Origin: Candidatus Pacearchaeota archaeon
Lineage (GTDB): Archaea; Nanobdellota; Nanobdellia; Pacearchaeales; GW2011-AR1
Reading direction: 5' to 3'
DNA length: 19,864 nt
NCBI GenBank assembly: GCA_016866975.1
Contig: VGKP01000014.1
Span: 1 to 19,864, forward strand
The position numbers were made by a program, and so were the translations under genes. Below are positions 1 through 19,864 of this stretch, piece by piece; the stretch's first letter is position 1, and each line of letters opens with the position of its first letter. A model generated the notes under the pieces. That model saw only the letters and a list, made by a program, of their open reading frames with translations. It made no database searches and was not told the DNA's origin.

Positions 1-231
1 AGCACCAGCAAGTTATATCTATCAGAGAATGAATTGAAGATAGACATAACAGAGACAAATAATCTCGAAGAGAACATAATAAATAAATTTGAGGAAAATC
101 ATCCTAGCAGGTTTAATGCCTTTGTGCCTTCTCTCATGAAGGTTCTTCAGGTCGAGAAACTCGATGAAGAGCGTTCTTCAGTATTCGAGGAAAGAATACT
201 CTCAGACATTAAGAAGATACTTTCACTATGA
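1..231 (+). CDS. mre11: C-terminal end of DNA double-strand break repair nuclease Mre11 (partial, starts before the window)
   Basis: Frame 1 is open from base 1 (STSKLYLSENELKIDI...KKILSL*). Its TGA overlaps the rad50 ATG (ATGA, 228-231). Identity rests on the position directly upstream of rad50; no catalytic motifs lie in the window. Confidence 0.65.
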   Translation, partial: STSKLYLSENELKIDITETNNLEENIINKFEENHPSRFNAFVPSLMKVLQVEKLDEERSSVFEERILSDIKKILSL

Positions 232-2270: not shown

Positions 2271-2325
2271 CCGTAAAACTTAAATACTTGATAAAAGTCT
2301 CTAAACAAGAGGTTCTGTAATTCTT

Positions 2326-2991
2326 ATGAATCCGCTTTCGCAAGACATTGAAAAAAATATAGTAAAGTCAGGTACAAGCATAGTCGGAATTGTATGCAAG
2401 GATGGAGTTGTACTTGCTGGTGACCGAAGAACCACTGCTGGAGGCCAGATAGTCATGTCTAAACGTTCTGATAAAGTCATCAAAATAAATGATTATATTG
2501 CTGTGGCAGGCACAGGAGTATCCTCAGACATAGATTTATCTCAAAGGGTTCTTTCTGCAGAATTGCGCCTTAAGGATCTTAAGACAAAGTCTCGGACTAC
2601 TGTGAAGGAAGCTGCAAATCTATATGGCCTCATGTCTTATCGTAATATCAGGACGCCCAGCATGATACCTAGCATGGTAGGTACATTGCTTGCAGGAGTA
2701 AACGAAGACGGTTCTACCGAACTTTACACTATTGAACCTGCTGGAGGAGTCTATAAGGTTGAAGATTATGATGCCAACTTTGGTTCAGGCATGCCCTATA
2801 TATTGGGTCTTCTCGAAAGGCAGTACAAGAAAGACATGAGCGTGAAAGATGCCGTGGAGTTGGCCAAGGAATGCATAAAGGCAGCCATGGAAAGAGATCC
2901 TGCATCGGGCAATGGTATTGACGTATTCGCAATCACAAAAGAAGGCGTTCGCCACGTTGTTTCTGAAGTGATTGTGATTGAATACAAATAA
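2326..2991 (+). CDS. psmB: 20S proteasome beta subunit (with 16-aa propeptide)
   Basis: Propeptide ends in G|TSIVGIVCKDGVVLAGDRR. Lys33-equivalent SDKVIKI, GSG motif (FGSGM) and RDPASGNG are present. Lies directly upstream of aCPSF1, a conserved archaeal neighbourhood. Confidence 0.93.
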   Translation: MNPLSQDIEKNIVKSGTSIVGIVCKDGVVLAGDRRTTAGGQIVMSKRSDKVIKINDYIAVAGTGVSSDIDLSQRVLSAELRLKDLKTKSRTTVKEAANLYGLMSYRNIRTPSMIPSMVGTLLAGVNEDGSTELYTIEPAGGVYKVEDYDANFGSGMPYILGLLERQYKKDMSVKDAVELAKECIKAAMERDPASGNGIDVFAITKEGVRHVVSEVIVIEYK

Positions 2992-3004
2992 TCTGGGATA
3001 AGAA

Positions 3005-4885
3005 ATGGCCGATATTTTAAAAAGTATTAAAGAAGACTTACCTAAAGTCATTACAGATGCCGAATTTGAAGGAGCAAATATAGTTCTATATACTTCAGAC
3101 AAGGAATTTTTCAAGTCTGGGGAGAGAAAGATAAAGGACGTTGTTGATAAGGTAAAGAAAAGGATAGAATTACGTGCAGAGCAGAATATCCTGGCCTCAG
3201 AAGAAGAGACTGAAAAGACCATACGCGCTCTTGTGCCAGAAGAGGCAGAGATAACACAGATAATCTTTGATGTCCAGAGGAGTAGTCTGGTGATAGAGGC
3301 TAAACGACCCGGCTTAGTGATAGGCAAACAAGGCTTTATATTGAGCGATGTTAGAAAAGCCACTTTTTGGACTCCTAACGTTAGAAGAAGTTCCAGCATA
3401 CCTAGCAAGATTACCGAGAAGATACGTTCAGTCTTATATGCAAACAACGCTTATAGGAGGAAATTCCTTAATGAGATAGGTAAGAAGATATATAGTGAAT
3501 GGAGTTCCGAGAAGATGGATATGTGGGTAAGACTAACTTATCTAGGCTCGGGCAGACAAGTAGGCCGCTCGTGCCTTCTTCTCCAGACTCCAAATTCTAA
3601 AGTCCTTCTCGATTGCGGCATTAATCCTGCAATTCCCGACGGTCCTGAAAGGTTTCCCTACCTTAATGTCCCAGAGATAGGCGACCTTAATTCCATAAAT
3701 GCAATAATCTTAAGTCACGCCCATACAGACCATGCAGGAGTGATACCTTATCTTTATAAGATGGGATATCGCGGGCCAGTCTATCTTACTGAACCAACAA
3801 GAGACATTGCAGCTCTTTTGGCTTTAGACTTTATTGGGGTGGCGTATAAACAAGCAGCTTCTCCACTATACAAAGCAGAAGATATTAAAGAGATGGTAAG
3901 ACACTCAATCTCACTAGAATATGGAGAGGTCACAGATATAACTCCAGATATCAGAATAACTTTCTACAATGCTGGTCACGTACTTGGCTCAGCACAAGTG
4001 CATATTAATGTCGGCAACGGTCTGCACAATCTGGTTTATGGTGCCGATACTAAATATAGCAAGACGCGATTGCTTGATCCTGCAGTCAACCATTTCCCCA
4101 GGGTAGAGACGCTTACCATAGAATCTACATACGGATCTAGAGATGATGTTCTTCCTCCAAGGCAAGAAGTCGAGAATCACTTCATAGATATTGTGAAAAA
4201 GACTATTGAAAGAAATGGCAAGATTCTTCTGCCTGAATTAGGACTGGGCCACGCTCAAGAGACGGTACTGAGAGTTGAGGAAGCTGTACGTACTGGGATC
4301 TTGCCAAAAGTTCCTGTCTACATAGATGGCATGATCTGGGATATAACTGCTATCCACACGGCTTATCCAGACTTTCTTTCAGCATCTGTCAGAAATCAGA
4401 TATTCCAGGACAATAATCCATTTACCTCAGACATGCTTAAGAGAATCGGCAGTCCTGCAGAGAGAAAAGAAGTCATTGAAGGAGGCCCATGCATAGTCAT
4501 TGCTACAGCAGGTATGCTTACAGGAGGAGCATCTGTCGAATATTTCAAACACTTTGCAGGCAACGCAAACAATCTGATTGTCTTTGGATGTTATCAAGCA
4601 CTTGGTTCTCCTGGTAGGCAAGTTCAAGATGGTGCCAAAGATATCTATCTTGACAATGAGAAAATAGAGATCAACATGCAAGTCGAGACTATAAAAGGAT
4701 TCTCAGCCCATTCTGGAAGAAACGAGCTACTTCAATATGTAAGCAGGATGAATCCGAAACCTAAGAAGATAATCATAAATCACGGTGAAGTTTCTAAATC
4801 TCTCGATCTCGCATCATCTCTCTACAAACTAAGCCGCACAGAAACCGTCGTCCCAAGAAATCTTGAGACAATTAGATTGAAATAG
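3005..4885 (+). CDS. fttA: aCPSF1 / FttA: KH-domain metallo-beta-lactamase beta-CASP ribonuclease and transcription termination factor, 626 aa
   Basis: N-terminal KH region (RPGLVIGKQG), GSGRQVGRSC, LDCG, HAHTDH (HxHxDH), NAGHVLGS, ESTYG, FSAHS, HGE. Confidence 0.94.
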   Translation: MADILKSIKEDLPKVITDAEFEGANIVLYTSDKEFFKSGERKIKDVVDKVKKRIELRAEQNILASEEETEKTIRALVPEEAEITQIIFDVQRSSLVIEAKRPGLVIGKQGFILSDVRKATFWTPNVRRSSSIPSKITEKIRSVLYANNAYRRKFLNEIGKKIYSEWSSEKMDMWVRLTYLGSGRQVGRSCLLLQTPNSKVLLDCGINPAIPDGPERFPYLNVPEIGDLNSINAIILSHAHTDHAGVIPYLYKMGYRGPVYLTEPTRDIAALLALDFIGVAYKQAASPLYKAEDIKEMVRHSISLEYGEVTDITPDIRITFYNAGHVLGSAQVHINVGNGLHNLVYGADTKYSKTRLLDPAVNHFPRVETLTIESTYGSRDDVLPPRQEVENHFIDIVKKTIERNGKILLPELGLGHAQETVLRVEEAVRTGILPKVPVYIDGMIWDITAIHTAYPDFLSASVRNQIFQDNNPFTSDMLKRIGSPAERKEVIEGGPCIVIATAGMLTGGASVEYFKHFAGNANNLIVFGCYQALGSPGRQVQDGAKDIYLDNEKIEINMQVETIKGFSAHSGRNELLQYVSRMNPKPKKIIINHGEVSKSLDLASSLYKLSRTETVVPRNLETIRLK

Positions 4886-4900
4886 ACAAACTATTAAAAA
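4886..4900 (+). promoter_or_regulatory. Putative BRE/TATA promoter
   Basis: ACAAAC-T-ATTAAAAA lies 21 nt before ATG 4922. This matches the architecture and spacing of the promoters at 6710-6724 and 6754-6768. Confidence 0.5.
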
Positions 4901-4921
4901 CCTATTTTCCTTCTCTATAAT

Positions 4922-5035
4922 ATGATTCTAATAATGTGCTGGAAGATTGCAATCCCGCAGGTTGGATGCTGGAAGATTGCAATCCCGCAGGTTGGATGCT
5001 GGAAGTTGAGAAACCCGCAGGAGGTTTTCATTTGA
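4922..5035 (+). other. Possible 37-aa upstream ORF (MILIMCWKIAIPQVGCWKIAIPQVGCWKLRNPQEVFI*)
   Basis: ATG sits at the leaderless position of the promoter and the frame is open through the repeat. Its TGA (5033-5035) overlaps TTG 5032-5034 of the protease gene. Confidence 0.3.
4937..5021 (+). repeat. 30-bp tandem repeat: two exact copies plus a 25-bp diverged copy, each able to form a hairpin
   Basis: TGCTGGAAGATTGCAATCCCGCAGGTTGGA at 4937-4966 and 4967-4996. TGCTGGAAGTTGAGAAACCCGCAGG at 4997-5021 matches 20 of 25 positions. Internal palindrome GATTGCAATC at 4945-4954 and 4975-4984. Confidence 0.95.
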
Positions 5036-5970
5036 AGCATTCTATAAAGATAACTCTTATCCTTTTGGGAATGTTTCTCCTTGCTCAGTTTATTGGACTC
5101 GGAGTCAATTACATCTATTCTCCAGACATAACTTCTGAGACTGTAACTCTTTCAAATAATGAGACAGTCACCATAAATGTAACAACTTATAAGAATCTTC
5201 CAGAACCTTTCCAGCCTGCAGAGGAGAACAATCATTGGGGCAATTTCATATCTCTGATAATAGCATTCATTCTAGCGATAGGAATAATGCTCTTAATGAT
5301 GAAATTCAGGGCAGAAATACTTTTGAGGATATGGTTCTTCATAGTGATTATTCTCGGCCTGACAGTGGCATTGAATGCCTTTCTTTTATCGATCCCATAT
5401 GCACTGCTTTATTCATTTATCATTTCAGTCATTTTAGCTTATTGGAAAGTCTTCAGGAGAAACATCATCGTCCACAATCTGACAGAACTTCTCATATATC
5501 CCGGAATAAGCGCTGTATTTGTCCCTCTACTTAATTTATGGGGAGTCGTGGCCCTTCTAGTGATAATCTCATTTTATGATATGTATGCTGTCTGGCACTC
5601 AGGTTTCATGCAGAAGATGGCAAAATATCAGATAAAGAAAGTCAAGGTCTTCTCAGGTTTTTTCATACCTTATATCAGGAAGGAAGACAGGGCATTGATT
5701 GAAAAAATAAAGAAGGGCAAGGCCAAGGACCAGAAAATCAGAGTTAACATTGCACTTTTAGGCGGAGGAGATGTAATATCCCCGATGATTCTATCAGGGA
5801 TTGTCTTGCAGGCATGGGGAATAATTCCAGCTTTAATGGTAACTCTTGGCACAACAATTGCCCTCGCATACTTATTTTACATCTCTGAGAAAGGCAAATT
5901 CTATCCTGCCATGCCTTTCATAACAGCTGGCTGCCTGATAGGTCTTGCGATAAGTTCTCTTCTTAGATAG
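5032..5970 (+). CDS. Presenilin/signal-peptide-peptidase-like GxGD intramembrane aspartyl protease (archaeal DUF1119-like), about 312 aa
   Basis: Multiple TM segments. Catalytic YD (ISFYDMYAVW), GxGD (LGGGDV) and PAL-equivalent YPAMPF are present. Start placed at TTG 5032 because a GGAGGT Shine-Dalgarno lies at 5020-5025; the longer ORF-track start (4936) runs through the tandem repeat. Confidence 0.85.
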   Translation: MKHSIKITLILLGMFLLAQFIGLGVNYIYSPDITSETVTLSNNETVTINVTTYKNLPEPFQPAEENNHWGNFISLIIAFILAIGIMLLMMKFRAEILLRIWFFIVIILGLTVALNAFLLSIPYALLYSFIISVILAYWKVFRRNIIVHNLTELLIYPGISAVFVPLLNLWGVVALLVIISFYDMYAVWHSGFMQKMAKYQIKKVKVFSGFFIPYIRKEDRALIEKIKKGKAKDQKIRVNIALLGGGDVISPMILSGIVLQAWGIIPALMVTLGTTIALAYLFYISEKGKFYPAMPFITAGCLIGLAISSLLR

Positions 5971-6688
5971 AAAAATCAATAGGTTGAGTGACTACTTGAA
6001 TTGCTTCAATTTCTTTCCTAATTCGGGACATTGTTTTAATCTTTGCCTGGGCAAGAGAAGATTGAATTTCTTGGCCATATTGCTTTATATCATGAGGAAC
6101 GACAACTACCATGTCAAATCCTCCAGTATAAATATCCGTAGCAGCCCTTTCAAGTGCAGAGTCAGCCATAGAAGCAGCATCTGATAAACTTATCTGCTCA
6201 AAAGAAAGGTATTTTTGTTCGTCAAAATATCGAAGTGCGTGCTCACTTCCACTTCCAATAGAAGTCCCTAATCTTTCTTCTATACGCCCCAAGGGCCAGC
6301 AAGTGTATAGCTTAGGCTTTCCTTCGTAACGTGATGCGATAAGAAGGCTGTTCTGGGCACTACTATTCCATGTCTTACCTCCGAACCGATTGTAATTAAG
6401 GCGGAAAAGTTCTTCAAAATGCCCCTTTTCCAAGGATTCTTTTAGAGGAATTTTGCCTTCAAGAAGATCATAAAGGAACTGACAGTAATCAGAATCTGCA
6501 ATACCTGCCATGCACACCGCGAACTCATTAGATCTAGATATATGGATTTTTTGAGCATTGGTGCGCGTAAGTCTCTTATACGCAACATCTCCTCTTTCTT
6601 CCCATTCCGTGCGTGTACTTGCGATGTCTGAAGCAAGGACTACCCCAGGTGTTCCTTTGCATGCAACTATTCCTACAAGAGTAGTCAT
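5963..6688 (-). CDS. Divergent proteasome-beta-like Ntn hydrolase without propeptide, 241 aa
   Basis: Starts M-TTLVGI (Thr1 exposed by Met removal). Also has GVVLASD, QKI, MAG, SIGSGS and TDIYTGG, in the order and spacing of beta-subunit catalytic motifs. Confidence 0.8.
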   Translation of the reverse strand: MTTLVGIVACKGTPGVVLASDIASTRTEWEERGDVAYKRLTRTNAQKIHISRSNEFAVCMAGIADSDYCQFLYDLLEGKIPLKESLEKGHFEELFRLNYNRFGGKTWNSSAQNSLLIASRYEGKPKLYTCWPLGRIEERLGTSIGSGSEHALRYFDEQKYLSFEQISLSDAASMADSALERAATDIYTGGFDMVVVVPHDIKQYGQEIQSSLAQAKIKTMSRIRKEIEAIQVVTQPIDFSI

Positions 6689-6709
6689 ATCTTTTTATTT
6701 AACCATTCT

Positions 6710-6724
6710 TTTTTAAATCTTTCT
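6710..6724 (-). promoter_or_regulatory. BRE/TATA promoter of the beta-like gene (leaderless)
   Basis: Minus strand reads AGAAAG-A-TTTAAAAA, 21 nt before ATG 6688. Confidence 0.6.
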
Positions 6725-6753
6725 ATAATTTACCCTTATATAGTTACAACATC

Positions 6754-6768
6754 AGAAACATTTAAATA
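6754..6768 (+). promoter_or_regulatory. BRE/TATA promoter of the TrmB gene (leaderless)
   Basis: AGAAAC-A-TTTAAATA lies 22 nt before ATG 6791. Confidence 0.6.
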
Positions 6769-6790
6769 CCTCATTTGTTGCTATCCCTAC

Positions 6791-7594
6791 ATGATAATGA
6801 AACCAGAACTTGTGAAAAGGATCAAAGAATATTTCAACCTGAACATTTACGAGACTAAGGTCTGGCTAGCCCTCCTTACTAAAGGTATAGCTTCAGCCAG
6901 GGAAGTCGCAGATCTTTCAGGAGTGCCTAGAAGCAGGACATATGACGTACTGGAATCTCTTGAAAAATCAGGGTTTGCAATAACCAAGATAGGCAAGCCT
7001 GTCAAGTATATTGCAGTAAAGCCTACAGAAGTCCTTGAGAAAATGAAGGCAAATACTATGAATGATGCTCAGGAAAAAGTCAAATCCCTTTCTACTCTAA
7101 AGGACACTCAAGAATATACTGAACTTGAACAATTACACAAGTCAAGCATATCTTTGGTTAAATCAGTAGACATTACAGGATCTCTTAAAGGAAGGTCAAA
7201 TGTCCTTGGAAGATTACGAGAACTTCTTGAGAGCGCAAAGAACGAAGTGTTAATCTGCACAACCGTATCAGATTTTGAGGATAAAAGCAGGATACTTGTA
7301 CCTGCCCTAGACAAGCTTGCTAAAAATAATGTAAAGATCAAGCTAGCATTATCTGGAGATAGTGAAAATATAAGAAAGGTATCAAGCAAAATAAACGCCA
7401 AGGTAAAAACCACAGATACAAACGCAAGGTTTTTCATCACAGATAAGAAAGAAGTATTATTCATGGTAACTCCAGAGCAAGCTGATGAGGAGATGGGCGT
7501 TTGGCTCAACTCAGAATTCTTCACATCTTCACTCACAAATATAATCGACTTCTCTCTCAAGAATGGGAATGGCAATCTCCCCCAGACGAAATAG
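6791..7594 (+). CDS. TrmB-family transcriptional regulator / chromatin protein, 267 aa
   Basis: N-terminal winged HTH typical of TrmB (LNIYETKVWLALL...AREVADLSGVPRSRTYDVLESLEKSGF...KPVKYIAV), a helical linker, and a C-terminal effector-type domain (AKNEVLIC...ARFFITDKKEVLF). Confidence 0.9.
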   Translation: MIMKPELVKRIKEYFNLNIYETKVWLALLTKGIASAREVADLSGVPRSRTYDVLESLEKSGFAITKIGKPVKYIAVKPTEVLEKMKANTMNDAQEKVKSLSTLKDTQEYTELEQLHKSSISLVKSVDITGSLKGRSNVLGRLRELLESAKNEVLICTTVSDFEDKSRILVPALDKLAKNNVKIKLALSGDSENIRKVSSKINAKVKTTDTNARFFITDKKEVLFMVTPEQADEEMGVWLNSEFFTSSLTNIIDFSLKNGNGNLPQTK

Positions 7595-7595
7595 A

Positions 7596-7904
7596 ATGAT
7601 ACCTAAAAAAACAGTCTGTTATCATCACTTTTTTGTTGCAGAAAGTAGAAGAAAAATAAACGAGCCGATAAAAGATGATATGACTGTCGTTCCTAATTCT
7701 GATATGGACAGAGCATATGAAAATCAACTCGGTCATGGAGTGGATCTGTGTGCACGATTGTATTTAGGAGGCGTCATACTTTATAGACTCGACTCTCCCT
7801 GTATAGAGTTATTTCATGAGCAGAAAAGAGGCATCGAGAAAATTGCCAAAGAGTTAGGATTTTTAGAATTAATAAAAAAACAAGAAGCTAATCCAAAATC
7901 TTAA
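7596..7904 (+). CDS. Hypothetical protein, about 102 aa
   Basis: ATG 7596 lies 1 nt after the TrmB stop. The ORF fills the gap and overlaps the cca 3' end by 17 nt. No recognisable motif. Confidence 0.55.
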   Translation: MIPKKTVCYHHFFVAESRRKINEPIKDDMTVVPNSDMDRAYENQLGHGVDLCARLYLGGVILYRLDSPCIELFHEQKRGIEKIAKELGFLELIKKQEANPKS

Positions 7905-9225
7905 TCCCTGTAATACTCATCTCTTTCATTTTCTTCCAGGAGGTCTTGAGGAACTTATTAATACATTCTCTTGCAGATCCAGAAGTCTTTACGCGCGCAT
8001 GCAAGAAACCATTCTTCTTAAATACATTTTTATGTTCCTTTCTGAATGCATTGGCATGCTTTTCCATCTTCAAGGGCGGACCTATTTTTACTATCTCTTT
8101 CTTGGCCTTTAGTACAAAATAAATCTCGGCACTTTCATCGCAATCGTATTGGAATGCCTTAGAGAAAATCTCAAATTCTTTTATCAGTTCAAGAGACAAG
8201 AACTCGAAAAATTTCTTGAGTTTAGTCCCTGCGATATCTCCCGCTTGTTTGTCAGTAGATATATTTAAGTGCAATAATTCTGCCTTATTTTCCAGAGCCA
8301 GTTTTTCTAGCTCTTTCTTGTCTATGGCATGGAATATAAAATATTCCTTAGAAGGCCTTCTGATAAACTCTCCAGCAGCCTTCTTGAATACTTCAAAACT
8401 TTCCCTGCTCAATGCAGCAAGGGCATTTCGCTCTTTCCAAGTAGGGTCTATAAGGATTATGGGGCTTTGCAGCTTGCTTTCATTCATCAATATTAGGAGA
8501 TTGTCTTTCTTCCCATACTGCTTTTCAGGGTCAATAACAATTCTCTTTTCTGCCTTTGAAAGCGCCCTGATCATTTTTAAGAAAGAGCCATAATAAAGGA
8601 TTAGGCACTCTAAAGCATATCCGGAGAATCCTTGTATATAACTCTCTGCCCCATATACTCCTTGTGCTCTGCAAAAAGTCTTTGCTAGCGCTACTTCATT
8701 GTTGAATTCAGGATGTCTCGCAATATATTTTTTAAAATACTTTACATGGAAGTAGCTGAGGTCAGTGACATTTCTCGCCTCTCGCGGATGTTTTATGGAT
8801 ATCACAGGAATTATTTCAAATGATAAGTAAGATGAAAAATTCAGCCTGAAATAGTCCCTGCTTCCATGTATTTTATCTATCTTAATATCTCTGTTTTTTC
8901 CAAACGCATTGTGCACCACTCTTTCCAGTATCGAGGACAGTTCTTCATATCTTTGGTCAAATCGGACATAGACGTCTATATCATGTACCTGTTTTTTCAC
9001 CATTGTCCTCTTTGCAAAGCTTCCTCCTAGAAATACTTCGGCACCTATCTTGTTTTTTCTCAGAGAAATTTTCAATTTTTCTACAACTTTTTTGCTCTCC
9101 TCTTCCAACCATTTGTACTGATTTTCAATGGGAGTAAGATCCAACCCCTTGACCACTTGTCCAATATTTTTCCCATATTTCTCTTTGAGGCGTATAGTCT
9201 CACCCACATATCTTTTGAATTGCAT
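7888..9225 (-). CDS. cca: Archaeal (class I) tRNA CCA-adding enzyme
   Basis: Nucleotidyltransferase motif FLGGSFAKRT...HDIDVYV, plus GVYGAESYIQGFSGYALE and PIILIDPT..ERNALAAL. Start is uncertain: ATG 9225 is used here, and the frame is open to TTG 9246. Confidence 0.92.
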   Translation of the reverse strand: MQFKRYVGETIRLKEKYGKNIGQVVKGLDLTPIENQYKWLEEESKKVVEKLKISLRKNKIGAEVFLGGSFAKRTMVKKQVHDIDVYVRFDQRYEELSSILERVVHNAFGKNRDIKIDKIHGSRDYFRLNFSSYLSFEIIPVISIKHPREARNVTDLSYFHVKYFKKYIARHPEFNNEVALAKTFCRAQGVYGAESYIQGFSGYALECLILYYGSFLKMIRALSKAEKRIVIDPEKQYGKKDNLLILMNESKLQSPIILIDPTWKERNALAALSRESFEVFKKAAGEFIRRPSKEYFIFHAIDKKELEKLALENKAELLHLNISTDKQAGDIAGTKLKKFFEFLSLELIKEFEIFSKAFQYDCDESAEIYFVLKAKKEIVKIGPPLKMEKHANAFRKEHKNVFKKNGFLHARVKTSGSARECINKFLKTSWKKMKEMSITGIKILD

Positions 9226-9249
9226 CCTCAAAACAATGATCGTCAATAT

Positions 9250-9684
9250 TTAAACTCGCGCTTCCTTTTTCTCTCCACCAAATATGCTAGACAGGTCTAC
9301 AATATATTTTCCGTCTTCCAATTGATATACTCTAGGTCTTTCCTTAGATAGAAGCTTTTGCAGATCCAAAAGATATTTTCCAGGTTTCAATACTCTTATG
9401 CTCTCAAAATCAAGGAATACGGGCTGTTCTTCATCTTTTATCCCAGTTATATCTCTTATGTCCTCTTCTATCTGTTTCTTTTCACCAGTACTAAGGTTGA
9501 GAACCAGGTCTTCAGCGCTATTATTTCCAGGAATAGACGGATGAGCCATGTTGCTTGATATCAGTTTCAATTTATCTTCTTTTATATAAAAGAAGAATTT
9601 TCTTTTACAGTTAGAACATCCATTTAGTACTTCTTGAGCTCCATCTTTGTAAGTAGAAGAGCAATGAACACACCGATATGCCAT
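9250..9684 (-). CDS. oapC: OapC Zn-ribbon protein (DUF2072-like origin-associated protein C)
   Basis: N-terminal CVHC...CSNC..KFFFY and C-terminal ESIRVLKPGKYLLDL. Third gene of the GTPase-DUF2073-Zn-ribbon triad. Confidence 0.88.
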   Translation of the reverse strand: MAYRCVHCSSTYKDGAQEVLNGCSNCKRKFFFYIKEDKLKLISSNMAHPSIPGNNSAEDLVLNLSTGEKKQIEEDIRDITGIKDEEQPVFLDFESIRVLKPGKYLLDLQKLLSKERPRVYQLEDGKYIVDLSSIFGGEKKEARV

Positions 9685-9732: not shown

Positions 9733-10116
9733 TCACTTAAACAATAACTCAACTTTTTTAGGATCTCTCTTTATCTCCTTCACTACGCTTGAGGGTCCTA
9801 TGACTGTCAGTGCAGAACTGTCTCCTACAAGCCTTCTTGCTAGGCCATATTTCATCTTAACAAATATAGTCTTGTCCCTTAGGTCAGGCTCAATCACTGC
9901 AAGCTCAATGCCCCTGAAATTCTTAATATGCCCTACAAGGGCCATTGTGTCCTCAATCAATCTTGCCTCTTCTTCTGCTCTCAATCTTCCATGTATCATG
10001 ACTATCTTATTGTTCAAGATCAGGCTAAGTATCTTTTTTACTCTCTCAGATATGCTTAAGTCAGCTATCTCCGAATACGGAATGACTTGCAAGCTTAAAC
10101 CCTCTATTTTTTTCAT
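9733..10116 (-). CDS. oapB: OapB (DUF2073-like origin-associated protein B)
   Basis: KIVMIHGRLRAEEEARLIEDTM...FRGIELAVI...LTVIGP. ATGA overlap with oapA. Confidence 0.88.
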   Translation of the reverse strand: MKKIEGLSLQVIPYSEIADLSISERVKKILSLILNNKIVMIHGRLRAEEEARLIEDTMALVGHIKNFRGIELAVIEPDLRDKTIFVKMKYGLARRLVGDSSALTVIGPSSVVKEIKRDPKKVELLFK

Positions 10117-12152
10117 ACTGTTTTGCTGAGCCTGAATACTGCTTCGTAAAATTCCTCCATATTTAATCCTTCTTTTGCGGAGATTCCAACAACTTCATAT
10201 TCTGGGAAAGCCGCGGCCACTTTTGCGACATCTGCCTTCTTTATATCTATCTTATTTGCAGCTATGAGCACAGGAATCTTCCTAGCCACAAGATTTCCTA
10301 TTATAGTGATATTCACTTGGGAATAAGGGTTTTCCGTAGCGTCAAGGACAACTATCACTGCATCCATATCATCAAGCCACCGTATCGATTCTATGATTCC
10401 TTGGGTGGCTTCTTTTGCTCTCTTCTTTGCATCTCCTTTTTTGACACCGAATTTCAAGAACTCTTCATAATCTATTTTTGTCGCGATACCTGGAGTGTCG
10501 ATGAGCTTAAATACGAGAGTTTTGCCCTTATGCTTTATCTCTACACGTTCCTTAAACTGAACTTCTCGTGTCTCATGCGGTATCTTGCTCACGACGCCAA
10601 TCTCCTCTCCTGTCCAGTCCTTGCATATTCTGTTTGCAAGGCTTGTATTATGCGCGATAAGACCATTGGAAATAATGAAAGTATGTGTATCTTCTACGGT
10701 GAGATCATAAACATAATCATCATACGTTTCTTTTTCAATAGATATAATTTCATCCCAGAGGGCATCTGCGTGAGCAAGTTTCTGTACAAAAGGATTGTCT
10801 AATTGATCAGCCATATCCTTAATCCTATGGTAAGTGATACGATTATCTCTTCGCATTCGCGCAATATGCTTATCATCAAGGAAAAATTCCTCCTGCGTTA
10901 AACCCGACTTCTTTTGAATTTCTTCCAATAACTCTACGATAGGAAGGGCAAATAGATTTCTTTTGAGGCCAGCAGCACACAAAATAGAGAGATTTTCTGA
11001 TTTATAGCCTATATCAAATCCTATATATTTCTTAAAGAGTCGATGATTATCACTTCCTCCAATAAGGAGGCGATAATAGGGATTGCCTTTAATGATTTTC
11101 TCTTTAAATCTCCCAACAATTCCAAAACGATTTAACAAGAGTTGAACTTGTTCAGTAAGTTTTTTACTCTTACTCGTAAATTCTATCTCTGCTCCACGGA
11201 TTCGGGCAGTTTTAGGAACATATCCTTCACAATCAAACATTCTGCGTAAAAAGAGTGCAGTAAGATTGTCAGGTAATCCCATAAGTTGCGCAGGAATTTT
11301 CTTGCCTCCAGCAGTTGCTGGTTTCATATCAAAAACATCAGAAAGCCAGTCACAGAGAGTCTTAGAATAAATTTCAATTTGAGGTATACCTTTGTTTATA
11401 CGATAAATGGTAGGCAGTTTAAAGACATTCTTAGCAATGGAATCAAAGTGATTAAGAAGTTTAGGATTTGTGTTGCTAAAGACTATTCTATTAGCACCAT
11501 GATGACTCTCTGTTAGAACATATGCAATAAAACTGACCATATCTTCATTAATGTATGTTGGAATAGATATCGATTTAGGCTTATGAAATTTAGAAAGAGT
11601 TTGAATTTGACCATTGCAGGTTGTAAAGAGGGCCTGAGTTATCTGAGGAATTTCTACTAAAGTATTAAGTGCTATCTTCTTAGTAATTCCTACACATTCA
11701 CTGACTTTCAAATTGCCGCTTCGTACATACTCCACACCATTATTGGAGATGCGCATAAGAGGATGATTAGGGGTAACGCGTATTTTCCTACCCGAGCGAG
11801 TCTTAATATTCAATATTTCTCCAGTATATTTTTGAGCATAGACATAAGTTACTTTTTGAGGGACAATTTTCATGCTTTCGATATCAAAACTAGGGAGGAT
11901 AATATTGGAATCTGAGGCATCAATATAAATTTCCTTATATCCATCTTCTTTAGGGGCACCTTTATCTTCTCGTACTTGATTAAATATTTCTTTAATAGGC
12001 TTAACCTGGCCATTCTGTAAAACGACTTCAGTTTCTGGAGCAACACACTTTCCAGCATTCGGAGGTCCGTAAAAGCCTATCTTAATATGTTCTTTTCTTC
12101 GAAAAAGACCACGCAAAACCCTCCTCGAGAAATTCTTCAAAATTCGCAACAT
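10113..12152 (-). CDS. oapA: OapA Era-like GTPase precursor containing an intein (679 aa precursor, 212 aa after splicing)
   Basis: Removing residues 36-502 restores G1 GPPNAGK|TS, G2 (HETRE), G3 DTPG, G4 NKID and G5 SAK. Directly followed by oapB and oapC. Confidence 0.92.
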   Translation of the reverse strand: MLRILKNFSRRVLRGLFRRKEHIKIGFYGPPNAGKCVAPETEVVLQNGQVKPIKEIFNQVREDKGAPKEDGYKEIYIDASDSNIILPSFDIESMKIVPQKVTYVYAQKYTGEILNIKTRSGRKIRVTPNHPLMRISNNGVEYVRSGNLKVSECVGITKKIALNTLVEIPQITQALFTTCNGQIQTLSKFHKPKSISIPTYINEDMVSFIAYVLTESHHGANRIVFSNTNPKLLNHFDSIAKNVFKLPTIYRINKGIPQIEIYSKTLCDWLSDVFDMKPATAGGKKIPAQLMGLPDNLTALFLRRMFDCEGYVPKTARIRGAEIEFTSKSKKLTEQVQLLLNRFGIVGRFKEKIIKGNPYYRLLIGGSDNHRLFKKYIGFDIGYKSENLSILCAAGLKRNLFALPIVELLEEIQKKSGLTQEEFFLDDKHIARMRRDNRITYHRIKDMADQLDNPFVQKLAHADALWDEIISIEKETYDDYVYDLTVEDTHTFIISNGLIAHNTSLANRICKDWTGEEIGVVSKIPHETREVQFKERVEIKHKGKTLVFKLIDTPGIATKIDYEEFLKFGVKKGDAKKRAKEATQGIIESIRWLDDMDAVIVVLDATENPYSQVNITIIGNLVARKIPVLIAANKIDIKKADVAKVAAAFPEYEVVGISAKEGLNMEEFYEAVFRLSKTV
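10647..12047 (-). mobile_element. Intein with LAGLIDADG homing endonuclease, 467 aa (Cys36-Asn502, +1 Thr)
   Basis: Block A CVAPETEV (TGT at 12047-12045), block B RVTPNHPL, LAGLIDADG-type motifs FIAYVLTES and FLRRMFDCEGYV, block H SKSKKLTEQVQLLLNRFGI, blocks F/G VYDLTVEDTHTFIISNGLIAHN (AAT at 10649-10647) followed by Thr. Confidence 0.96.
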
Positions 12153-12157
12153 GATAG

Positions 12158-14827
12158 TCAGAAAGAAGGTCTTTTAATAAATCTTGCGTCTATCGGTTCT
12201 TCCTGCCTTTTCTCTATTTCTTTCTTCACTTTCCTGTTCTCTAAGAACTTGAATATCGGTATTTCATACATCCCAGTTCTTTTTCCGTCTATTTTTTTCA
12301 GCGCATAGACAATTTGTTCAGAATTCCAGCCAGTCTCAGCCAATTTTTTCCTTATATCTCCATCTGTAAGACTTTGCGCTCGGGCATTGTATATAAAATT
12401 GACCATATTATAAAGGTCGTCTGAGTTATGGAATAGATGGCCTTCATATCTTCTCTTATACCACTCCTGAAGTATGATATAAACAATTAGGAAAAGCAGT
12501 ATTGTGGCAATCACTCCGCTCCACGCTGTTTTCCAAGGGTTATATATGAAGAATGGTTTTGCCTCGACTTTTTCACTTTCAAGATATTTAATATCTGGAG
12601 CAAGATATGCTCCCAATGAAGATAGTTCTATGTTTCCAGGAAATGCAAATGATATAGTTTTATCTTCAGATATAGGTATTGCAATGCCATTTGAGCTTCC
12701 AGCACTTACTTCAAGAGACTCATAACTCTTATCAAAATAAATCTGTTTTTTTGGAGAGCCTATTATTACAAATGCAGGGCTGGCACTCTCAGATATTTTC
12801 TTTATATCCAACGTATAGAATGTAGCAATCTCAGACTCTTTCTCATCAAGTACCATAGAGTACACTTCTTTCTTTATATCTGCTTTATAGGAGCGATCAG
12901 TCCAGTTCACTATTGCCCTCTTTAGACTATCTTCACTTAAATCTTTTTCACCGACTTTTGATATCGATGCCAGATATTGCAAATTTGCATTTACAAGACC
13001 AGAAAGAAGCAAGTCTTCCTTTATCATGGATGGAGCTACTTGAGAAGGAACTTGTATCTTAAGCACTCCTTCGACAACAGCAGTATAATTTTCATCACTT
13101 GATGCGGAAGCATATATCTTTTGTAAATTCTCTAGCTCATTTTTCAGGCCAGTTACGTTGATTCTTTCTTCTATGTACTTTGCCTTCCAACTAGGGAGTT
13201 TTGCTATTTCAGAACTTAAGTTAGATATCTTTTGAGATATATATGGCATTAACAGCTTAGCAGAAGTATTTGCATTGCCCACAGAGACGGTGAAATTTTT
13301 CATGCTTATTGCACCATCTGATCTGGTCGCAGTCACTTCTAGGCTATTGTTCCCGGACTTGGTAAAAGTGTGATATACCACTCGACCTCTGACTGTCTCT
13401 GTCTTGCCATCCCCAAACTTCCAGACTGAATGTGAGATATTCTCCTTGCCGCCTATATTAAACAAGGTAGATAGCCCTATACTCGCTATATTTGGATAGA
13501 CATCAAAATCAAACCCTGCTTGCAGCGATAAAGGCACAGGATTAAACAGCCTATTGCTTCCCGCATATAGGGCAAAGAACGTCTCTTTAGTGCCTCTAGG
13601 GATCGTGAAATTGGCATGGTCTAGCGTTATGTTTATCTTTTCTGCGTTTATCACTGGAGTGGTGGGTTCCATCTGGAATAAACCAGTATTTGTCAATAAT
13701 GCTCCTTTTGATATGTATTTAAGTTCAGATATAGTGAAGCTGACTTGCTGACCAATGCCGCTTCTCAATACAAAAGGTATTGCACATCCTTTTGTACAAT
13801 TGCTGGAGTATATTTCTCCAAGATAAGTATTTAGGAGATTGACTAGGCTCTTCCCGCTGACTTGTACAACACTTGATTCGTTTATCTCAAATGCTGGTTG
13901 TGCAAATGTCAGTGCTTGCCCAGAAAGCGGATAATCTCTAGAGAATGAATTGGAATTCTTCTGTGATGTCCCGCATATAGGGCTTGAGGTCTCAGTAGAT
14001 AAGGTATAATTGCTCTCTATTCCCGGCTTCGCGCTAATACATAATAAGTAATCTTGGGTATAAGCTCTTGAGCTATTGATGATGCAGCCTAAGTCTCCTG
14101 AATGTGTAGAATGCTTAGGCAGTATACAAGAGTCTATCAATACCCAATTGGCATCATACAAAGTCAAAGTCAGCTCGGCATATGCTTTTGTGCTATTGAT
14201 AACAACAGCAGACAGATTATACCCTGGCCCAGTAGGCAATGTTATTTTTTCACAATAAGGGTTTTGTTGATTATTTGATATCTCAGCTATTTCAGTAGGA
14301 GAACTCGGCGAGAAGCACCCTCTTGCTTTCTCCCCACATCCAATCGCCTTATAATTTGCATTGACCAATGAGATATTTGAATCAAGAAGATCTGCGCGCA
14401 ATTGTCCGATGCATGATTCTGCAGCATCACTGTTCACAGACAACCTAAGAGACTGTATGCTGATATCTTCTCCCGTAAGGTTGAACCCTACTGTCTTATT
14501 CTCGACTGTCATTGTCAAAGGAGAGGTAAACAAGCCCTTTGCACTCACAGCAGTTGTGCAGTTCTTAGTGTTGCACTTATATTCATTCCCCTCGGAAAAA
14601 CTATTTCTCCTCAATAGATCTATTAAGCTGATAGATCCCTGGAAATTGCTGCTTATATTTAATGTAGGGTTTTCATTTATTATCTTGAGCTGCACATTTC
14701 CTCTTATCACATCCCCTCCCTGATATCCCGATGTCTTTATGCTTATATTTACCCCATCAATACTAGCAGCCACAACAGGCAACAATACGACAATCAAAAA
14801 CAACCCCCAAAACATGCCCCTTTTCAT
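12158..14827 (-). CDS. Large single-pass membrane-anchored surface protein with PKD domain, 889 aa
   Basis: N-terminal signal peptide, Cys-containing ectodomain with many NxS/T sites, PKD motif VWKFGDGKT...VYHTFTKSG, TM helix (AWSGVIATILLFLIVYIIL) and a cytoplasmic tail of about 100 aa. Confidence 0.85.
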   Translation of the reverse strand: MKRGMFWGLFLIVVLLPVVAASIDGVNISIKTSGYQGGDVIRGNVQLKIINENPTLNISSNFQGSISLIDLLRRNSFSEGNEYKCNTKNCTTAVSAKGLFTSPLTMTVENKTVGFNLTGEDISIQSLRLSVNSDAAESCIGQLRADLLDSNISLVNANYKAIGCGEKARGCFSPSSPTEIAEISNNQQNPYCEKITLPTGPGYNLSAVVINSTKAYAELTLTLYDANWVLIDSCILPKHSTHSGDLGCIINSSRAYTQDYLLCISAKPGIESNYTLSTETSSPICGTSQKNSNSFSRDYPLSGQALTFAQPAFEINESSVVQVSGKSLVNLLNTYLGEIYSSNCTKGCAIPFVLRSGIGQQVSFTISELKYISKGALLTNTGLFQMEPTTPVINAEKINITLDHANFTIPRGTKETFFALYAGSNRLFNPVPLSLQAGFDFDVYPNIASIGLSTLFNIGGKENISHSVWKFGDGKTETVRGRVVYHTFTKSGNNSLEVTATRSDGAISMKNFTVSVGNANTSAKLLMPYISQKISNLSSEIAKLPSWKAKYIEERINVTGLKNELENLQKIYASASSDENYTAVVEGVLKIQVPSQVAPSMIKEDLLLSGLVNANLQYLASISKVGEKDLSEDSLKRAIVNWTDRSYKADIKKEVYSMVLDEKESEIATFYTLDIKKISESASPAFVIIGSPKKQIYFDKSYESLEVSAGSSNGIAIPISEDKTISFAFPGNIELSSLGAYLAPDIKYLESEKVEAKPFFIYNPWKTAWSGVIATILLFLIVYIILQEWYKRRYEGHLFHNSDDLYNMVNFIYNARAQSLTDGDIRKKLAETGWNSEQIVYALKKIDGKRTGMYEIPIFKFLENRKVKKEIEKRQEEPIDARFIKRPSF

Positions 14828-15430: not shown

Positions 15431-16357
15431 ATGAAAAAGACATTAGAATCTCTTATAAGAAGAGCAAAAGATGCTGTCAAAAAGACAGCCACAGCCTTGG
15501 GTGCAACAGCAGCTATAGCCACAGCCACTACCTTCCCTCAGCAAGCAAATGCCGATGTGTATTTGACTATGGAATCCCAGAATGGACTAGGTCTTCAATT
15601 ACCTCATTCATCTAAAAATAATCCTGGAGTAGACATCCATATATATGCAGACAACACCACTGAATCAGATTCTACGGGAAGCATAGAAATTACCTCCCTC
15701 AAAGCTCCACCTTGTTTTGAATATTGGGGCGCCTTTATTATGGATCCTTATGTAAATTATTATGATGACTTAATTATACCTCCCTCCCCTTCCAGGGACT
15801 TTTTCTATCCAAAGCCATTAAAACATGGTGAAAATTATATTGGTCCCATTAAAGGCAAGAGAAGCGTAGACCTGTCCAATACAAGTCTATCTCCTCTCAG
15901 TCTTGCTCAAAAAGGTGTAATAAATAAAAAAGGATTAATAGGGATTATAAGTTATGGGTTAAAATCAGATACTCCTACAGGAAAATATCAATTTGAGATT
16001 CAAGGCATAGCAAAGAGGCCAAATGGAACAATTCAACAAACAAAAGGCAGTATATTTACTATAAATATTGTTCAAGATAAAGACTATTTTGATAAAACTC
16101 CTCTTCTTACTCAAGATATGAATTATGCTCCAGGAACTACCAAGAAAGTCCCAATACTTAGAGTTAGCGGTTACAAAAAACCAGTCCAGCTTCAGGCTTC
16201 TTCAGACCTAAAGACTTGGCAGACAATAGCCACAAGTCCTTTTAGTATTAAAGATTATGTTCCAGAACAGGAGAGAGATATATGGGCTGCCTTTAATCAT
16301 GTAGACAAAGAAGCCGAAAAATATCCAGCTAGATTTTATAGATTATTTGTCCCTTAA
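15431..16357 (+). CDS. Secreted hypothetical protein (beta-rich, possibly cohesin-like domain plus distinctive C-terminal module), 308 aa
   Basis: Basic n-region, Ala/Thr-rich h-region and AxA cleavage site (QANA|DV). C-terminal motif LQASSDLKTW...FNHVD...PARFYR. No TM anchor. The cohesin-like fold is a guess. Confidence 0.8.
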   Translation: MKKTLESLIRRAKDAVKKTATALGATAAIATATTFPQQANADVYLTMESQNGLGLQLPHSSKNNPGVDIHIYADNTTESDSTGSIEITSLKAPPCFEYWGAFIMDPYVNYYDDLIIPPSPSRDFFYPKPLKHGENYIGPIKGKRSVDLSNTSLSPLSLAQKGVINKKGLIGIISYGLKSDTPTGKYQFEIQGIAKRPNGTIQQTKGSIFTINIVQDKDYFDKTPLLTQDMNYAPGTTKKVPILRVSGYKKPVQLQASSDLKTWQTIATSPFSIKDYVPEQERDIWAAFNHVDKEAEKYPARFYRLFVP

Positions 16358-16414: not shown

Positions 16415-19204
16415 TTACTTTTTCTTTCTAACTTTACTTTTTGAGATATTTCTTCTAATCAAATAATATATTGCAATTACAATCAATACTGCAATTGCTA
16501 ATTGTACTGCTCCAAAGAAAGGCAGATAAAGAACAGAACGCCCACAAGGCAATCCATAACCTTCCTGTTCTTTGCACCTATCGCAACTTCCACTTCCAGA
16601 TCCTCCAGAACTAGAGCTTCTGATTATCTCGATTCTTATCTTTTGCAATTTTGTTGTCTGATCACAAATACCTTTAGTCACAGATTTATATACACAAGTA
16701 TTAATTACTTTTCCTTTACTATCTCTTTCTTCAACCTTATTATTACATTCTTTTTTATTTTTATCCCACTCGCAATAAGCTTGAGGGTTGCAAGAAACCT
16801 GTTTATCTTGTGGGACAGATTCTCTAAAAGCACCATTACATGTTCTTTCGGCATCATTTACTTCTTGAGGAATATTCGGATTAATACTACTATGGACACT
16901 TCTGCAGTCACTGACTTTGATACATCCTCCAGGAGGGCAACCTGGAGAAGTCTCATCTTCAATTCTAAGGTCATTACTAGTTATCTTACCACTCTCATGT
17001 GCTAATCCAGTTATTACTGCTCCACTTATTGAACCAGTGGTAGGATTGACTTCGAATTTTACAAAATGTCCAGGTATCGCCTTATCTCCCACTATATCTT
17101 TAAGAGTTCTTGGAGAGCCATCTTGCTTTTTAGGAGGACTAATTGAAGTCGATCCGACTTTACCCCAGGTTTCTATTTTTATACTTTCTGAAATGTCATT
17201 GTTTTTATTAAACACTCTAAACTGCACATTTTGATTAATCCAACTTGATGGTACGTTATTTACCTTCATCTGCACTTTTTCACTCAACTTCGCAGAATTG
17301 GCTATATTTACTCCGTCTTTAGTCCATATCGCCACAGGCGTTTTAGTGATTTTACACCCACTAGTATCAAATGTACATGCTGCCCCAGTCGAACCAGATC
17401 CTCCATCATTGCATCTCAGGTTTCCTTCATTGAAAGGAGAGTTAGGAATATAATTTGTACAATCCTTGCCATTCATCACTGGCCCTTTTTTATCGCATTG
17501 CTCCCCACTATCTATTCTTTCATTCCCACAAAGACTTAATGCTCCCGATCCCGATCCCGACACTACAGGCAGTGGAATAGTAGGAGATATTGTACAGCAT
17601 ATCTTATGGGAAGCAGTTGTTCTAGCTTGAGACATGAACGCATTAGATGTCCCAGAAAGAGCAAGTATTTCTCTCTCATTGGCAAGACAAGCAGATCTAG
17701 TGACGCAAGATAAATCCCCATAGCAAACATTTACAGGCGCATTAGCAGTACATCCAGAAGTCACTATCTTGCAATTATCACACGCAAGGTTTCCTCCATT
17801 GAACGACCCCCCTCCAATATCTTTGCATTGCAGTCCTCCGAAGTCATTTCCGTCACATGCCTCTACTCCTTTCTTAACTCCATCATTATCACACTGCAGG
17901 ACAGCGCCGCCGCAGCTGCTTGGCTGGCAGGTGCTGCTACAAAGGACGCCATTGATACACTTGTCATTCCCAACTCCATTGTCACATCCTTCCCGGAATT
18001 CCCTCTTTCCATTCCCACATATTGGCTCAGGGGGAGTTCCTCCACCACCCTCATTAATTATAGTGGGAGGTACATACGGGGGAGGTATGTAATTGATCCC
18101 AGTATTGAAATCCCAGAAAAAGAAGAAGAAATTATTCTGTATTATTACATTAGGCGTAGGGGGATTTGGATATCCCTGCTGAGGGTCTTCTCCAGAAGGA
18201 ATATTGTTTCCAGGAAGATCTAAGCAAGCAGATCCCATCACTTGGAAAGGCGATTTAACAGGTTGGTTTTGGGATCCAAATCCCTCAGGAGTAATTTCCT
18301 TCTCATCTATGATATTGTTGCCTCCATCAGGTCTACCTAGTCCAACAAAGAAATTAGCAAGATAGTCTCCTTCTTTATCATTTTCAACACAGAATTCATT
18401 TGTACTGAATCTAAAGCTCTCTCCTGTCTCATATACCACATAGACATTTGTATCTCTAAATCTCACAGTGTTTGTTTTATGGTAATATCCTACATAATCC
18501 ATTACGCTGTCTACAGGGTATATTGGCCCAAGCATTCCAGCATCACTCGAGCTTACATATTTTCCTCCAGGAACATGGCTATTTTGAGATACTAGAAGGC
18601 TGTTATCAATTTCTTCATAAGCTACAGCTGAGCCATCTGGTTTTTGAGGAATTCCATGCATAACTTTGAATGGAGGATGATCCGCACACGTGAATTTGAG
18701 CCTATATTTTATCTGGTAATTTGTCTTATACCTTAAATTGGCTGGCCCGCCTTCATAAAACTGATTTACTTCAGTCCATGTTCCCTGCTTATTTACAACT
18801 ATTCCCCATCCACTACGTCTAGCTCCATTGATTTGTTTGCCCTCATTTTCACCAGTCTCATATAAAAGATCCTTGAGATAAGGTATTATTGTATTCGTAT
18901 AAACAAGTCCCGGATAACCAAATTCTTTCACTAAAGGATCTTGTTTAGGTTTCCAGCCCATTTGGCCTGCAAAATCAGTATATTCATTGACGCAAGCATC
19001 AAGTTCCTGACCAGTAGGAATATTTAATGGAGAGAGGCTTTTTCTCTCTCTTATTGCATTTGCTTGCTGGTAAGTAATGATCTGACCATTTGAATCATAT
19101 ACACATGGATCGTTTACAACAGGGATGCAATAAGGATTATACGCAAACACACCAGGTATACTTAATGATGCAGCTATAACCAATAAGATAAAGAAGTATT
19201 TCAT
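16415..19204 (-). CDS. Cys-rich membrane-anchored surface protein, 929 aa
   Basis: Start is ATG 19204, overlapping the upstream TGA. Has a signal peptide, Pro/Gly linker, three CGN/CDN..E.CD Cys modules, a C-terminal Cys-rich region, and LPFF plus TM helix plus basic tail. Confidence 0.85.
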   Translation of the reverse strand: MKYFFILLVIAASLSIPGVFAYNPYCIPVVNDPCVYDSNGQIITYQQANAIRERKSLSPLNIPTGQELDACVNEYTDFAGQMGWKPKQDPLVKEFGYPGLVYTNTIIPYLKDLLYETGENEGKQINGARRSGWGIVVNKQGTWTEVNQFYEGGPANLRYKTNYQIKYRLKFTCADHPPFKVMHGIPQKPDGSAVAYEEIDNSLLVSQNSHVPGGKYVSSSDAGMLGPIYPVDSVMDYVGYYHKTNTVRFRDTNVYVVYETGESFRFSTNEFCVENDKEGDYLANFFVGLGRPDGGNNIIDEKEITPEGFGSQNQPVKSPFQVMGSACLDLPGNNIPSGEDPQQGYPNPPTPNVIIQNNFFFFFWDFNTGINYIPPPYVPPTIINEGGGGTPPEPICGNGKREFREGCDNGVGNDKCINGVLCSSTCQPSSCGGAVLQCDNDGVKKGVEACDGNDFGGLQCKDIGGGSFNGGNLACDNCKIVTSGCTANAPVNVCYGDLSCVTRSACLANEREILALSGTSNAFMSQARTTASHKICCTISPTIPLPVVSGSGSGALSLCGNERIDSGEQCDKKGPVMNGKDCTNYIPNSPFNEGNLRCNDGGSGSTGAACTFDTSGCKITKTPVAIWTKDGVNIANSAKLSEKVQMKVNNVPSSWINQNVQFRVFNKNNDISESIKIETWGKVGSTSISPPKKQDGSPRTLKDIVGDKAIPGHFVKFEVNPTTGSISGAVITGLAHESGKITSNDLRIEDETSPGCPPGGCIKVSDCRSVHSSINPNIPQEVNDAERTCNGAFRESVPQDKQVSCNPQAYCEWDKNKKECNNKVEERDSKGKVINTCVYKSVTKGICDQTTKLQKIRIEIIRSSSSGGSGSGSCDRCKEQEGYGLPCGRSVLYLPFFGAVQLAIAVLIVIAIYYLIRRNISKSKVRKKK
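17354..18019 (-). repeat. Protein-level Cys-rich repeats (Myxococcus cysteine-rich/DUF4215-like)
   Basis: CGNGKREFREGCD, CDNDGVKKGVEACD...FNGGNLAC..C..VTSGC and CGNERIDSGEQCD...FNEGNLRC...C.FDTSGC. Confidence 0.7.
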
Positions 19205-19864
19205 CAAGCCACTCTGCCTGCGCTTGCCAGGGCCCTAGTAGGGCTATTTAGTATCAATATTCTGTTGCTCAAAGAGGACTTGCATTGATGAGGATTTGTA
19301 GGCCGTGTATGTCCCGGGAATAGTGTGCTGAAGCATATCTCGATAGGATATATGCTTCCTCCATTCCATAGTTCCCCTAATGCATTTGCAGGTTTTTCTA
19401 TTCTCAGTATAATATCATCTGCAGTAGCACATTTCTGTGGTTCTATTCCGGGCAAGGGAGGGGGAGTTTGTGCACATATCGTATTATGAACGTCTCCACG
19501 TGTGCACGTCTGTGGACCATCTCTTCCAGACTCATCTATAGACACGTATGTCGAAGAAAAAGCGGAATGGCCAGTTGATGAAATAGCCTTTACCCAATAA
19601 GAGTAATCGTGGGCATATCCTTGGTAAACTGGCCTGGCAAGGACTGCTGCTCTTTCATCATTATAGCTGGTAGAGGTAGTTGTACCTATAAGTCCAGTTT
19701 GTGCTTGATCAGGATTAGCTACGCCCTGTTTGCCATAGTAAATCTCGTAACTGGTTGCCCCAGTTACCGGGCTCCACCTTATAGTATTTCTTAGAAAATA
19801 ATCGTTATCTCCACTGATAGAGTTTGAACTGCAAACAGAATCTCCCTTTGTAATAACTGGAGCT
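19204..19864 (-). CDS. Fibronectin type III domain-containing protein (C-terminal part, runs off the window)
   Basis: Manual translation shows the frame open from 19863 to TGA 19206-19204: APVIT...TIRWSPVTGATSYEIYYG...IGTTTSTSYNDE...YSYWVKAISSTGHSAFS, the FN3 W/Y/Y pattern. The ORF track reports only the last 113 aa. Confidence 0.85.
   Translation of the reverse strand, partial: APVITKGDSVCSSNSISGDNDYFLRNTIRWSPVTGATSYEIYYGKQGVANPDQAQTGLIGTTTSTSYNDERAAVLARPVYQGYAHDYSYWVKAISSTGHSAFSSTYVSIDESGRDGPQTCTRGDVHNTICAQTPPPLPGIEPQKCATADDIILRIEKPANALGELWNGGSIYPIEICFSTLFPGHTRPTNPHQCKSSLSNRILILNSPTRALASAGRVA

Follow-up and report, generated by a model that had tools for sequence, protein, structure and literature searches.

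A probable selfish homing intein at the Walker A motif of the small GTPase OapA in a Pacearchaeota genome

One open reading frame in the stretch of DNA analysed here encodes a small GTPase with a second protein embedded in it. The stretch, which we call the window, is 19,864 nt long and comes from contig VGKP01000014.1 of a Candidatus Pacearchaeota archaeon (assembly GCA_016866975.1). The question that this locus raises is what such an insert is doing in the P-loop of a GTPase, and in particular whether the host has put it to use. We consider it very probable that we are looking at a selfish homing intein with a LAGLIDADG endonuclease, inserted in frame at the Walker A GK|T of oapA/arvA/dipA in a DPANN (Nanoarchaeota-type) genome of about 0.8 Mb, and it is most likely without adaptive function for the host.

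The interrupted gene and its insert

The precursor (10113..12152; positions are those of the window, and every part of the precursor lies on the minus strand) is 679 aa long, and its 2040-nt frame is open throughout. The list of open reading frames, Pfam and NCBIfam matches, and the junction sequence identify it as an OapA/ArvA/DipA-type small GTPase with an in-frame intein. The N-extein (12048..12152) has 35 aa and consists, by translation and alignment, of a basic and hydrophobic N-terminal helix, placed at residues 2-14 in an AlphaFold model, and then the first half of the P-loop, ending in GPPNAGK. The intein (10647..12047) has 467 aa, spans precursor residues 36-502, begins with CVAPETEV and ends with GLIAHN. 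Matches to PF14890, PF14528 and structure 7qss, together with the model, divide it into a HINT splicing domain, a LAGLIDADG endonuclease and a helical accessory domain. The C-extein (10116..10646; 177 aa, again by translation and alignment) begins with TSLANRIC, which supplies the Walker A Thr, and continues with switch I (HETRE), G3 DTPG at 552, G4 NKID at 633 and G5 SAK at 658. The host protein is thus split between Lys35 and Thr of GPPNAGK|T.

Each of the splicing motifs can be found in the translation. Cys1 of the intein (Cys36), the N-terminal nucleophile of a class 1 intein, directly follows the GPPNAGK of the N-extein, and block B reads TPNH (residues 127-130, 11763..11774), which fits TxxH. 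Blocks F and G run from VYDLTVEDTHTF to GLIAHN (residues 481-502, 10647..10712), with the block F Asp and His present and a C-terminal His-Asn before the +1 residue (AHN|T); this +1 residue is a Thr and is also the Walker A Thr. In the +1 position, Cys and Ser are stronger nucleophiles than Thr. The Pfam Intein_splicing model PF14890 matches residues 43-502 above its cut-off (E 1.3e-28), and with the structural match of the model this gives a HINT fold; NCBIfam intein_Nterm and intein_Cterm match at residues 36-133 and 480-503. Pfam LAGLIDADG_3 (PF14528, E 7.8e-23) covers two LAGLIDADG helices, each with an acidic residue. The first motif is FIAYVLTES (residues 208-216, 11505..11531) and the second is MFDCEG (residues 305-310, 11223..11240), and in the alignment to 7qss their Glu215 and Glu309 each stand opposite a catalytic Asp of TliVMA. 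The exteins of the precursor match Pfam MMR_HSR1 and NCBIfam small_GTP. The G+C content is 35.5% in the intein, compared with 41.6% in the exteins and 39.0% in the whole window.

This anatomy is far beyond chance, and the insert is a canonical class 1 intein with a LAGLIDADG endonuclease. An earlier note, made from the sequence alone, had described a complete 467-aa intein at GK|T, and translation, Pfam and NCBIfam show that its coordinates and residue calls were exact. The same is true of its claim that excision gives a normal 212-aa GTPase. The joined exteins come to 212 aa, the modal length among intein-free orthologues, and their alignment to 212-aa orthologues needs no gaps and reaches 94% identity, with the C-extein by itself 92-94% identical to intein-free orthologues. 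After removal of the intein, the G1-G5 motifs (GPPNAGK|T, DTPG, NKID, SAK) are intact.

In an alignment of 30 intein-bearing OapA alleles, Cys36, His130, Glu215, Asp483, His490, Thr491, Phe492 and Asn502 are invariant, and Thr127, Asp307, Glu309, Gly310 and His501 are kept in at least 90% of the alleles. The residue at +1 is Thr or Ser in all alleles examined. The AlphaFold model built on this alignment has a pLDDT of about 90 over the intein, and its best structural match is TliVMA (7qss; Foldseek E 1.5e-32, TM 0.85, rmsd 3.9 Å), with PI-PfuI and PI-PkoII next. Over the exteins the model has a pLDDT of 35-75, with the P-loop and switch I below 50, and we drew from these parts no evidence for an unfolded precursor. 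We predict that the intein is capable of both splicing and endonuclease activity.

The host gene is followed directly by OapB and OapC. OapB (ArvB/DipB; 9733..10116, minus strand) has 127 aa and matches PF09846 (E 4.4e-14), and the OapA stop overlaps its start as ATGA. OapC (ArvC/DipC; 9250..9684, minus strand) is a zinc-ribbon protein of 144 aa that matches PF09845 (E 2.6e-22). Operon context and family names together support the identification of the host as the OapA/ArvA/DipA GTPase, and the earlier note's naming of the host as OapA stands with the Pfam matches to these two downstream genes. A neighbourhood made up of a PKD-domain surface protein, OapA, OapB, OapC and the CCA-adding enzyme recurs on independent contigs, both with and without the intein.

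A described member of this family is OapA of Haloferax volcanii (also ArvA, DipA and ArcoA), a small GTPase whose operon, as at the locus here, also encodes OapB (DUF2073) and the zinc-ribbon protein OapC. This protein (HVO_3014) was renamed ArvA as a GTPase needed for extracellular vesicle formation, and a knockout of the gene is viable (PMC10927574). Two 2026 preprints describe the oap operon, as DipABC or ArcoABC, as an oscillator that positions the division ring (PMC13228585; bioRxiv 10.64898/2026.07.23.738820). The Haloferax OapA is intein-free, and the vesicle and division-ring roles are known only for H. volcanii. Unlike in Haloferax, we did not see an Orc1/Cdc6 gene adjoining the oap operon in the window. 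Directly upstream of oapA is an 889-aa protein (12158-14827, minus strand) with a signal-like N-terminus, a PKD domain and a C-terminal transmembrane segment; the pairing of PKD protein and OapA is also found on the independent contig L032.

Distribution and history of the intein allele

The earlier note had proposed a search for homologues with an insertion at GK|T and a mapping of intein-plus and intein-minus alleles in related genomes, and both have now been run. Searching with the C-extein among proteins of 373-1189 aa gave 42 metagenomic protein clusters, about 36 of which carry an intein at exactly the same site, GK|C…N|T/S. Five alleles (P0011, P0022, P0028, P0030 and P0032) have at this GK|C site a mini-intein, 187-217 aa long, that lacks the LAGLIDADG domain. 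All of these except P0032 have lost the penultimate His (…ASN| or …SGN|). The mini-intein alleles look like a decay stage of the homing cycle. P0012, P0038 and P0042 (411-432 aa) are of another kind, in which an intein-free OapA-like part shares the protein with unrelated Pfam domains (a caspase-type peptidase in P0038, lyase/ASL_C in P0042); they may result from gene fusion or from wrong gene calls on short contigs. The C-extein search among shorter proteins returned at least 8000 matches, and the best among the matches listed is 212 aa long and 94% identical.

In genomes close to the window, the intein is missing. We found OapA in 37 of 40 relatives (16 genus-mates plus family and order members), and all 37 copies are intein-free, with frames of 170-241 aa. 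A wider sample of 400 other genomes from the order has OapA in 390 and the intein in only one, G395, which belongs to another genus and has an intein 74% identical to that of the window; its own genus-mates G172 and G193 are without it. In the phylum, two of 400 sampled genomes have the intein, at 50-55% identity. Intein-plus alleles therefore occur in about 0.5% of the sampled species in order and phylum.

These counts bear on two claims that the earlier note had made about the host. It had taken the persistence of the intein in a streamlined genome to mean that OapA is important, which finds no support, given that 399 of the 400 order genomes are without the intein and that Haloferax survives the loss of oapA. 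It had also seen splicing as a possible post-translational switch, and here the record is no kinder: the allele is absent from every genus-mate searched and from about 99.5% of the sampled relatives. Since the intein is missing from the genus-mates and from nearly all of the order, any regulatory role is not conserved.

We then compared the history of the intein with that of its host. The extein trees were made with fast methods (FastTree, or the quick search of IQ-TREE), and in the tree of 185 alleles the intein-free rows were picked for closeness to the window, which biases this tree toward the neighbourhood of the window. In it, the window protein falls in a clade with three intein-free alleles at 99% support, nested in a group of 135 rows that is otherwise intein-free. 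Presence and absence of the intein need at least 7 changes on this tree, which is unrooted and so does not separate gain from repeated loss. With 99% support, the intein tree groups P0019 with the window, G395, P0001, P0002, P0003 and P0005. A clade of P0019 with this window group is rejected by the extein data (log-likelihood difference 43.5, AU p 0.0016), which points to transfer of the intein between alleles. P0019 and the window are 67% identical in the intein and only 66% in the C-extein. This suggests that the intein moved horizontally between distant OapA alleles.

A recent arrival from one of the sampled alleles would be a different matter. We looked for a co-conversion tract in the extein DNA flanking the insertion, comparing the window with P0043, G008 and three further genus-mates, all five intein-free, and with the intein-bearing alleles P0001 and P0002, and found none. 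Identity of the extein DNA is flat along the gene; it is about 81% with P0043 and about 71% with either P0001 or P0002. Synonymous sites have nearly saturated, and all compared alleles have the same amino acids up to about 20 residues from the junction. No tract was seen, and even the closest intein in the samples shares just 74% identity, so these data do not show that a sampled donor has recently invaded this genome.

Homing element or something else

As a homing element, the intein would work in the following way. The 679-aa precursor would be translated, and Cys36 would attack the peptide bond of Lys35. The +1 Thr, which doubles as the Walker A motif's Mg-binding Thr, would take over the N-extein, Asn502 would cyclise, and ligation of the exteins would yield a normal GTPase of 212 aa whose GPPNAGKT loop is intact. 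Once released, the 467-aa intein would then cleave intein-free oapA within the conserved DNA of the P-loop, and repair would insert a copy of it there. For this cleavage, the patchy distribution and the conflict between intein and extein trees are indirect support. The element would thus pass through a homing cycle of spread and loss. Such a cycle would account for the rare and patchy presence of the intein and for the mini-intein relics. The conservation of the endonuclease residues indicates selection for mobility, and the intein is probably still mobile, judging from its sequence. Rare and patchy occurrence, together with a tree at odds with that of the host, is the picture given by a selfish homing element and not by a conserved regulatory switch.

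What speaks for a switch is the position of the insert and what is known of similar inteins. The insertion separates the Walker A Lys from the Thr, so the precursor should be inactive: it is probably unable to act as a GTPase or to bind GTP-Mg until it is spliced, which would hold for every P-loop intein. There is also a Cys at position +8 of the C-extein in addition to the Cys at position 1 of the intein. Conditional splicing is documented for other P-loop inteins, for example that of Pho RadA (PMC4513877; PMC5790916). An intein domesticated as a conditional post-translational switch would then gate a GTPase for division-site placement or vesiculation, with a trigger such as redox, temperature, nucleotide or a partner protein, and we think this improbable. 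Its role would be private to a lineage, as the intein is missing from all genus-mates searched and from about 99.5% of sampled order and phylum species. The endonuclease residues are conserved, the histories of intein and extein conflict, and we found no sensor-specific sequence feature. For these reasons of distribution, conservation and history, the switch is without support. A narrower form, in which redox at Cys1 and the conserved Cys at +8, or binding of OapB/OapC, gates splicing in the carrier lineages and thereby times the activation of the OapABC oscillator, we regard as similarly unlikely.

The insert might also have stopped splicing, which would make this oapA copy effectively a pseudogene in a reduced genome. 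A +1 Thr can slow splicing, and OapA is dispensable in H. volcanii (PMC10927574), but the frame is open over all 2040 nt, all catalytic residues are intact and conserved, the exteins are 94% identical to functional-looking orthologues with G1-G5 intact, and the coupled oapB and oapC are retained. We rejected this reading on the open frame, the conserved catalytic residues and the retained operon partners, and consider it very improbable. Finally, the genome is a MAG of 31 contigs and the G+C of the intein is below that of its flanks, which could be taken as signs that assembly or binning joined an intein from another organism to oapA. Such an artefact is exceedingly improbable and was likewise rejected: the insert keeps the frame to the codon, and its site is common to about 36 independent database alleles and three other species genomes, and the neighbourhood of PKD protein, OapA, OapB and OapC recurs on independent contigs. 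The selfish homing intein remains our preferred reading.

Relatives of the intein and a new host

We scanned the intein alone against 1.84 billion protein representatives. Beyond the OapA alleles, its full-length relatives are only 27-35% identical, and those inspected sit in MCM, AAA+ and PilB-type ATPases, nearly all of them exactly at GK|S/T. By type, then, the insertion site is the classic P-loop hotspot, and the novelty lies in the host protein alone. The P-loop inteins of MCM (MCM-a/CDC21), AAA+ and PilB-type proteins begin with Cys and have a similar CV.(G/P)(D/E)T motif, like the window intein, but their hosts are ATPases of different families and they are too distant to name a donor.

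Two known inteins are useful for comparison. TliVMA (Thermococcus litoralis V-ATPase A subunit, VMA-b site, 7qss) is the best match by both sequence (E 2e-24) and structure, and like the window intein it occupies a P-loop site, combines HINT, LAGLIDADG and helical accessory domains, and has acidic residues in both LAGLIDADG motifs. The two are only 23% identical, the catalytic residues are Glu in the window intein and Asp in TliVMA, and the host of TliVMA is an ATPase of a hyperthermophile whereas the window intein sits in a small GTPase from a mesophilic DPANN archaeon. The TliVMA endonuclease is active in vitro, and PhoVMA, without those acidic residues, is inactive (PMC8966425). The RadA intein of Pyrococcus horikoshii (Walker A site; 4e2t, 2lqm; PMC4513877) shares the P-loop insertion and the +1 Thr, and its HINT domain matches at E 7e-14. 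It is a mini-intein without an endonuclease, and it is for this intein that regulation has been shown by experiment, which makes it the precedent for conditional splicing at a P-loop.

The earlier note had suggested that both host gene and insertion site might be undescribed. This is true of the published literature as far as we searched it, but sequences of this kind are already in the databases: they make up about 36 clusters, some of which bear the name 'intein/homing endonuclease/GTPase SAR1 family protein' from the automatic annotation of JGI. The papers on OapA/ArvA/DipA/ArcoA cited here do not mention an intein in this GTPase (PMC10927574; PMC13228585; bioRxiv 10.64898/2026.07.23.738820), and the main text of the Novikova 2016 intein survey does not mention GTP or GTPase. 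A full-text literature search, with InBase outside its scope, gave no earlier description of an intein in this GTPase and no relevant report from DPANN, Woesearchaeota, Pacearchaeota or Nanoarchaeota. Put modestly, this would be the first Arf/Era-like small GTPase recorded as an intein host, and it would extend P-loop targeting from ATPases and IF2 to a membrane-remodelling GTPase.

For the intein catalogue, the gain is a host protein that has been prominent since 2024 for archaeal vesicle formation and a Min-like division-ring oscillator. It is a further example of related inteins at a common GK|S/T P-loop site across unrelated NTPases. With full-length inteins, mini-inteins and empty sites all present, the OapA family is also a compact natural series in which the homing cycle can be followed in uncultivated archaea that have tiny genomes. 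Those who make trees or profiles from DPANN OapA sequences should be aware that about 0.5% of the alleles are about 680 aa long owing to the intein and are misnamed '50S ribosome-binding GTPase'. How inteins work is understood no differently after this case, which is an ordinary selfish element that is rare among relatives.

Searched against its own genome, the intein finds only itself at E <= 0.001, so we saw no paralogous source intein there. Three other loci match the Pfam intein model (G000 C1:49972-50985, C8:26031-27383 and C21:3589-3915, in frames of 1344, 881 and 1057 aa). None of them is a close paralogue of the window intein, and together they are a high intein load for a 0.8-Mb genome. 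In the rest of the window, two ORFs (16415-19207, minus strand, 930 aa; 15431-16357, plus strand, 308 aa) are without a Pfam match at E <= 1e-4. The other end of the window (228-9246) has archaeal housekeeping genes, which include a Rad50-like ATPase, FttA/aCPSF1, a presenilin-type signal-peptide peptidase, a TrmB regulator and the CCA-adding enzyme, along with a proteasome subunit and a second, divergent gene of the proteasome family.
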